Part shown: piece after piece, positions 8,591 to 29,635 of the stretch
Position numbering within the stretch: the first letter of the stretch is position 1
How the letters are laid out: each line of letters starts with the position of its first letter
DNA from: Escherichia coli
GTDB lineage: Bacteria; Pseudomonadota; Gammaproteobacteria; Enterobacterales; Enterobacteriaceae
NCBI RefSeq assembly: GCF_003334815.1
Contig: NZ_QOWO01000041.1
DNA: 33,046 bases
Strand: one strand, 5' to 3'
Notes under the pieces: model-generated
Told to the model about the DNA's origin: nothing
The model's input: only the letters and a program-made list of their open reading frames with translations
Databases searched by the model: none
Translations under genes and position numbers: made by a program

Positions 8591-8795
<205 letters not shown>

Positions 8796-27886: not shown

Positions 27887-28939
27887 TTACCCGCGACGCG
27901 CTTTTACTGCATTCGCCAGTTGACGTAACAGAGCATCGGTATCTTCCCAGCCGATGCAGGCATCGGTGATGCTCTTACCGTAGGCCAGCGGCTCCCCGCT
28001 CTCGAGGCTCTGATTGCCTTCCACCAGATGGCTTTCCACCATCACGCCAATAATGGCCTTTTCGCCACCGGCAATCTGCTGGCAAACGTCAGCACAAACA
28101 TCCATCTGCTTTTTGAATTGTTTGGACGAGTTAGCATGGCTGAAATCGATCATCACCTGTGCTGGCAGGCCTGCTTTGTTCAGCCCTTCTTTCACTTCAG
28201 CAACGTGCTTCGCGCTGTAGTTAGGCTCTTTACCGCCGCGCAGAATGATATGGCAATCGCCGTTACCGCTGGTATTCACAATCGCCGAATGCCCCCATTT
28301 CGTTACGGACAGGAAGCAGTGCGGCGCACCGGCGGCATTAATGGCATCGATAGCCACTTTAATCGTACCGTCGGTGCCATTTTTGAAGCCGACCGGACAA
28401 GAAAGCCCTGATGCCAGTTCGCGGTGCACCTGCGATTCGGTGGTACGTGCGCCAATTGCGCCCCAGCTCATCAGGTCAGCGAGATATTGTGGGGTGATCA
28501 TATCGAGAAACTCACCTGCCGCTGGCAGACCGCTGTCGTTAATATCAAGCAGCAATTTACGGGCTATACGCAGACCGTCGTTGATCTGGAAGCTATTATC
28601 CATATGCGGATCGTTAATCAGCCCTTTCCAGCCCACCGTGGTACGCGGCTTTTCAAAATAGACGCGCATTACGATTTCCAGCTCATCTTTCAGCTCTTCA
28701 CGCAGCGCCAGCAAGCGAGTGGCATACTCTTTTGCCGCGACAGGATCATGAATTGAGCATGGGCCAATCACAACCAACAGGCGATCATCATTACCTTTCA
28801 GGATCTTATGGATCGCTTTTCGGGCATGGGCAACCGTATTCGCGGCATTTTCAGTAGCGGGGAATTTTTCCAGCAATGCGACAGGAGGAAGTAACTCTTT
28901 GATTTCTTTGATGCGTAAATCGTCGTTCTGATAATTCAT
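27887..28939 (-). CDS. aroG: DAHP synthase, Phe-sensitive isozyme (350 aa)
   Basis: MNYQNDDLRIKEIKELLPPVALLEKFPATENAANTVAHARKAIHKILKGNDDRLLVVIGPCSIHDP.... Confidence 0.93.
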   Translation of the reverse strand: MNYQNDDLRIKEIKELLPPVALLEKFPATENAANTVAHARKAIHKILKGNDDRLLVVIGPCSIHDPVAAKEYATRLLALREELKDELEIVMRVYFEKPRTTVGWKGLINDPHMDNSFQINDGLRIARKLLLDINDSGLPAAGEFLDMITPQYLADLMSWGAIGARTTESQVHRELASGLSCPVGFKNGTDGTIKVAIDAINAAGAPHCFLSVTKWGHSAIVNTSGNGDCHIILRGGKEPNYSAKHVAEVKEGLNKAGLPAQVMIDFSHANSSKQFKKQMDVCADVCQQIAGGEKAIIGVMVESHLVEGNQSLESGEPLAYGKSITDACIGWEDTDALLRQLANAVKARRG

Positions 28940-29009
28940 GTCTGTTCCAGTGTTGCCATACTTATCTTAGTGAATGCAATACTTCCAATCTATATCTTCC
29001 GTCAGAATG

Positions 29010-29027
29010 TGTAAACGGGGTTTTACA
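29010..29027. promoter_or_regulatory. TyrR box upstream of aroG
   Basis: Perfect TGTAAA-N6-TTTACA at 29010-29027, about 70 bp upstream of the aroG start codon. Confidence 0.55.
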
Positions 29028-29254
29028 CTATGAACGGATTAATCCTGGAATTAGCAAGAAAAACGCCAGATTGTCGCGAAAAACGAGATCTCTCCTACAA
29101 TTTCTAACTGTAACTCCTTTGTTTGTTAATTATTTCAAGATTCTCTGCTGCGTTTCATAACCTGGCTGAAATCTTAAACCAATGCCTTATATTCACCTGC
29201 AAATGCACTGTTGGAAGAGGTTATCCGACATAACGACCATAACAGGAGCATCCT

Positions 29255-29635
29255 ATGAAAATGACAAAACTGGCCACATTATTTCTGACTGCCACTCTAA
29301 GCCTTGCCAGCGGTGCCGCACTGGCTGCCGATAGCGGAGCGCAAACTAATAACGGCCAGGCAAACGCCGCAGCTGATGCGGGCCAGGTAGCCCCTGACGC
29401 CCGTGAAAATGTCGCGCCAAATAACGTCGACAATAACGGGGTAAATACCGGTTCTGGCGGCACAATGCTGCATTCGGATGGTTCTTCAATGAACAATGAC
29501 GGAATGACCAAAGATGAAGAGCACAAGAACACCATGTGCAAAGATGGTCGCTGTCCGGATATCAATAAAAAGGTACAAACCGGTGATGGCATCAATAATG
29601 ATGTCGATACCAAAACCGACGGTACCACGCAGTAA
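29255..29635 (+). CDS. ybgS: YbgS, small secreted Asn/Asp/Gly-rich protein of unknown function (126 aa)
   Basis: Signal peptide [24 protein letters not shown]; low-complexity mature region. Confidence 0.85.

Follow-up and report, generated by a model that had tools for sequence, protein, structure and literature searches.

The palindrome TGTAAA-N6-TTTACA lies between the divergent genes aroG and ybgS of Escherichia coli, and the question raised by this locus is whether it is an operator for the regulator TyrR and, if so, which of the two genes it serves. We examined the site in a stretch of 33,046 nucleotides (hereafter the window, meaning the whole stretch of DNA that was analysed) and compared it with the aroG loci of other species.

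Locus and gene context

The window contains homologues of gpmA, aroG, ybgS, zitB, pnuC and nadA, with aroG on the minus strand and ybgS on the plus strand, and belongs to the E. coli chromosome. The two genes that flank the palindrome are divergent and separated by a spacer of 315 bp:

27887-28939, minus strand: aroG coding sequence, Phe-sensitive DAHP synthase of 350 amino acids, the regulated gene (open reading frame list and RefSeq annotation of an E. coli locus with 100% identity)
29255-29635, plus strand: ybgS coding sequence, 126 amino acids, the divergent neighbour, given for context only (open reading frame list and RefSeq annotation)

A preliminary description of this DNA had placed the palindrome in a divergent aroG-ybgS region, and this assignment was confirmed by RefSeq, which names both genes so in E. 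coli loci of 100% identity. Many E. coli chromosomes match the 601 bases around the palindrome at 100% identity, and each of the 5426 complete E. coli genomes contains this segment. Among the matches of the aroG-ybgS spacer in the E. coli genome collection, two of 5429 were located on plasmids and not on chromosomes. At least one E. coli genome carried two copies of the spacer.

Rfam and tRNA scans detected nothing in the aroG-ybgS spacer. Elsewhere in the window, two tRNA-Lys(UUU) genes were found on the minus strand (32764-32839 and 32972-33046, the second being cut by the window end), together with a match to the RtT RNA family (32873-33040, minus strand), which covers the spacer between the two tRNA genes and overlaps the second. 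A match to naRNA4 (nucleoid-associated noncoding RNA 4, CssrE) at 8643-8713 on the minus strand was marginal, with 60.7 bits against an Rfam gathering score of 59.5 bits.

An exact match to the strong TyrR box

Bases 29010-29027 read TGTAAACGGGGTTTTACA and match TGTAAA-N6-TTTACA at 12 of the 12 specified positions. On the aroG strand the same site reads TGTAAAACCCCGTTTACA. A strong TyrR box is defined as matching this pattern at 10 or more of the 12 positions, and it is known that a G and a C 14 bp apart (G-N14-C) are invariant and essential for TyrR binding (PMC4374768). With 12 of 12 matches, and with the G of this pair at 29011 and the C at 29026, the palindrome falls within the definition on both counts.

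When both strands were scanned, no other exact match was found in the 33,046 bases, and none of 100 dinucleotide-preserving shuffles of the window contained one. As the pattern is palindromic, the chance expectation of an exact match is 33,046 x 4^-12, or about 0.002 per window. With at most two mismatches, one match was found where 1.6 were expected, which is not above chance. What makes the box significant is therefore that the match is exact. The preliminary description had called the site an exact match to the strong TyrR box consensus, and in this it was right. The site is entered in the feature list as follows:

29010-29027, minus strand: strong TyrR box, very probably the aroG operator (12/12 match, 0/100 shuffles, arms kept across species, PMC4374768)
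29022-29027, minus strand: distal arm TGTAAA of the TyrR box (kept in the sampled Enterobacteriaceae genera and in Rahnella)

Position of the box in the aroG promoter

The box begins 88 nt 5′ of the aroG ATG when read on the aroG strand and thus occupies a regulatory position at a gene of aromatic amino acid synthesis. A sigma70 consensus scan of the minus strand placed the hexamer TTTACA (29015 to 29010), a 17-nt spacer and the hexamer TAGATT (28992 to 28987) at this position. Therefore, the proximal arm of the palindrome coincides with the predicted -35 hexamer. The promoter elements are as follows:

29010-29015, minus strand: predicted -35 hexamer TTTACA of the aroG promoter, identical with the promoter-proximal arm of the TyrR box (promoter scan; conserved with 17-nt spacing across Enterobacterales)
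28987-28992, minus strand: predicted -10 hexamer TAGATT of the aroG promoter (promoter scan; 1.98 bits per position across 70 box-bearing species)

Judging from the position of the -10 hexamer, aroG transcription would start near 28980, with a leader of about 41 nt, and the box would be centred at about -38.5 relative to this start. No second, weak TyrR box, sought as a G-N14-C pair with at least 8 of 12 matches, was found in the 315-bp spacer. Such a box would be required for control of the tyrosine/hexamer type or for control of ybgS.

A further block adjoins the box on its upstream side at 29035-29051 (ATTCCAGGATTAATCCG on the aroG strand). It is an imperfect palindrome and is moderately conserved, the consensus base being present in 60-80% of the 70 box-bearing species compared with about 40% farther upstream. 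This block could be an UP-like element or a site for another factor.

Comparison of aroG loci among species

For the comparison, one genome per species was scanned with a pattern for the N-terminal coding sequence of AroG, which yielded 120 loci. In 70 of these loci, a box with at least 11 of 12 matches was located 76-94 nt 5′ of the aroG ATG, and its distance was exactly -88 in 51 of the 70. The boxes contained 33 different spacers. The mean information content across the 70 loci was 1.96-2.0 bits in the arms, a value that is partly by construction since the loci were chosen for a match of at least 11/12. The spacer averaged 1.02 bits and the flanks 0.7-0.9 bits. The -10 hexamer, although no criterion for choosing the loci, also reached 1.98 bits, and the 17-nt spacing from the box to the -10 hexamer was invariant across the species carrying the box. 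In the presumed TyrR-using clade, both arms of the box are thus under purifying selection and its spacer is not.

Unbiased evidence comes from the fraction of loci with a box and from a comparison in which loci were selected by the promoter pattern TT[TG]AC[AT]-N16-18-TANNNT only, the distal arm being ignored. The arrangement TTTACA-N17-TAGATT or TTTACA-N17-TAAATT occurs throughout Enterobacterales, including Erwinia, Pantoea, Serratia, Yersinia, Hafnia, Rouxiella and Sodalis. Among the promoter-selected loci, the distal arm TGTAAA was found in every sampled genus of Enterobacteriaceae and in Rahnella, with the variants TGTTAA in Chimaeribacter and TGTAAG in E. albertii. All other taxa lacked it, among them Pantoea, Erwinia, Serratia, Yersinia and Hafnia (loci L011-L113), which keep the -35 and -10 hexamers. 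The distal arm has no promoter role and is therefore the part of the palindrome that is diagnostic of TyrR binding. Its strict retention at a distance of N6 points independently to selection for a dimeric protein that binds palindromes. From the distribution of this arm, TyrR presumably controls aroG in Enterobacteriaceae and Rahnella only.

Within E. coli, the 51-bp stretch containing the operator and the promoter was identical in 5362 of the 5426 complete genomes. An E. coli representative in the species sample (L048) has the box spacer variant ACGCCG. The type strain Escherichia albertii NBRC 107761 (L004), with its TGTAAG arm in a box of 11/12 matches at -88, was the only deviation among the representatives of Enterobacteriaceae. 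Some Serratia loci have sites of the form GGGCAA-N6-TTTACA (9/12) about 80-100 nt 5′ of aroG that retain the G-N14-C pair. On the basis of this pair, these sites could be weak boxes.

TyrR repression of aroG

It is known that aroG has a strong box of perfect consensus, which overlaps the -35 region and represses with Phe and Trp, as described in PMC4374768, citing Baseggio, Davies & Davidson 1990. A review counts aroG among the genes repressed with L-Phe as co-repressor (PMC4174253), the supplementary regulon tables of PMC5343134 place it under TyrR, and it is one of the genomic-SELEX targets of TyrR (PMC5791370). An engineering study of a TyrR helix-turn-helix point mutant recorded no significant change of aroG mRNA (PMC5791370). 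The preliminary description had suggested Phe/Trp-mediated repression of aroG by TyrR, which agrees with the account in PMC4374768, with the promoter scan and with the cross-species comparison. We found no sequence evidence that contradicts a TyrR operator. In our estimate, the probability that 29010-29027 is a single strong TyrR box and the operator of the E. coli aroG promoter is about 0.95. The sequence of the site, its uniqueness, its overlap with the promoter and the selection on its arms come from the present analysis, and TyrR binding and repression with Phe and Trp come from the literature. The box is real and functional, and it is already known and fully described.

As to the mechanism, a TyrR dimer carrying Phe or Trp as its cofactor would bind the arms TGTAAA and TTTACA. 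Because one of these arms is the -35 hexamer, the bound protein would hinder RNA polymerase by competing with it for the -35 region, and aroG transcription would fall. We infer occlusion by a dimer because the anatomy of the promoter shows a single box. Repression of this kind adds a transcriptional layer to the allosteric inhibition of AroG by phenylalanine.

The box in the window shows no difference from the aroG TyrR box of E. coli K-12, which is reportedly covered in "The TyrR regulon" by Pittard, Camakaris and Yang from 2005. In K-12, a single perfect strong box is found at the same site over the -35 region, in the same gene context and with Phe/Trp repression (PMC4374768). The tyrP gene is similar in that a strong box over the -35 region represses by hindering RNA polymerase (PMC4374768). 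According to the literature, however, tyrP has an adjacent weak box in addition to the strong one, is controlled through a tyrosine-dependent hexamer and can also be activated, whereas the aroG spacer has one box only and aroG responds to Phe and Trp.

Alternative readings of the site

Another regulator might read the palindrome in addition to TyrR or in its place, for example CpxR, or the sigma54 holoenzyme at an adjacent element of the TGGC-N7-TTGC type. We consider this improbable. In the case of CpxR, aroG is included among the targets in RegulonDB (table in PMC7657598), and two matches to the motif GTAAA-N5-GTAAA, each with two mismatches, overlap the arms of the box (29001 to 29015 on the plus strand and 29026 to 29012 on the minus strand). 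However, two-mismatch matches of this sort are common (the window has 39), and the feature kept across species is the symmetric pair TGTAAA/TTTACA and not a direct repeat of GTAAA. In addition, ChIP-exo did not place aroG among the direct targets of CpxR (PMC7657598). A CpxR site was therefore rejected, the only matches being frequent two-mismatch ones and the ChIP-exo data giving no direct target at aroG.

In the case of sigma54, a genomic-SELEX peak of the RpoN holoenzyme has been reported in the ybgS/aroG spacer at K-12 position 784656, which corresponds to about 29139 in the window (PMC8743547). A sigma54-like core (TGGCgtttttcTTGCt) with three mismatches is present at 29053-29068 on the minus strand, directed toward aroG and 26 nt upstream of the TyrR box. 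Matches with three mismatches are, however, not enriched in the window (87 found and 117 expected), and among 119 aroG loci the element was restricted to Escherichia and one Erwinia. A sigma54 promoter was considered as the source of the RpoN peak and discarded on these two grounds.

According to a second alternative, the TyrR box controls ybgS as well as aroG, activating or repressing it from a distance, so that the spacer would be a shared bidirectional region. The preliminary description had raised this possibility, which we regard as slightly less probable than a role for another regulator. The two genes are divergent and have the 315-bp spacer in common, and in most Enterobacteriaceae with ybgS the box is 215-236 nt from the ybgS ATG, a fairly narrow range. 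TyrR action on divergent promoters also has precedent in aroP P3 (Wang et al. 1997, as cited in PMC4374768) and in akr-ipdC. As in the spacer studied here, the TyrR site of akr-ipdC of Enterobacter cloacae and of aroP P1/P3 lies between divergent units. In those systems, however, both promoters are within reach of the boxes for class-I activation or for occlusion, and the strong box is paired with a weak one (PMC4374768), whereas the box in the window overlaps the aroG promoter only and has no weak companion.

The position of the box also argues against control of ybgS. The sole promoter-like site found on the plus strand before ybgS by the promoter scan was a sigma70/sigmaS-like candidate at 29166-29193. 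The centre of the box (29018.5) is about 180 nt 5′ of the ybgS start predicted from it, which is well outside the range of TyrR as an activator. For comparison, the activating box of ipdC is 33 bp upstream of the centre of the -35 region (PMC4374768). Across species, between 101 and 259 nt separate the box from the ybgS ATG, with no phasing, in contrast to the fixed geometry between the box and the aroG promoter. When only loci with 800 nt or more of sequence upstream were counted, 49 had both the box and ybgS, 15 had the box only (with zitB or pnuC as the neighbour), 18 had ybgS only and 26 had neither. In the 15 species without ybgS, the box is at the same position relative to aroG. The literature is consistent with this independence: the supplementary regulon tables of PMC5343134 do not contain ybgS, the publications found to name both ybgS and TyrR draw no link between them, and ybgS has been reported to be 82-fold RpoS-dependent.

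In a bidirectional control region, the box would be close enough to the second promoter to act on it, or box and gene would be conserved together, and we found neither. The suggestion that ybgS may share the control region was thus not borne out, given the distance of about 180 nt, the lack of a weak box in the spacer and the independent occurrence of box and ybgS. Shared control finds no support here, which lowers its probability and does not amount to a disproof.

Finally, we assign a negligible probability to the proposal that the match consists of the -35 hexamer and an upstream half-site present by chance and that it lacks a regulatory role. TTTACA is indeed a good -35 hexamer that is conserved even in taxa lacking the distal arm, but TGTAAA is kept at exactly N6 in every sampled genus of Enterobacteriaceae and in Rahnella, although the boxes have 33 different spacers and their flanks have diverged. 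This pattern effectively refutes the proposal, and both the chance expectation of about 0.002 per window and the reported TyrR repression through the aroG box (PMC4374768) stand against it.

Significance of the aroG operator

As the operator of aroG, the TyrR box is a classic regulatory element, and its recovery in this window serves as a positive control and not as new biology. Through this site, phenylalanine and tryptophan levels are coupled to transcription of the gene for the major DAHP synthase, which carries out the first step in the synthesis of aromatic amino acids. Strains engineered to overproduce aromatics routinely have the site deleted or circumvented. It is conceivable, with a likelihood even lower than that of simple shared control, that TyrR at the aroG operator influences the RpoS-dependent ybgS gene or acts together with the Escherichia-specific sigma54-like element at 29053-29068. 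If either were true, TyrR, a member of the NtrC family, would have a role in E. coli beyond simple occlusion of the -35 region. The comparison among species makes a modest addition to what is known of this operator, namely that its proximal arm is kept as a -35 hexamer throughout Enterobacterales while its distal arm is limited to Enterobacteriaceae and Rahnella.
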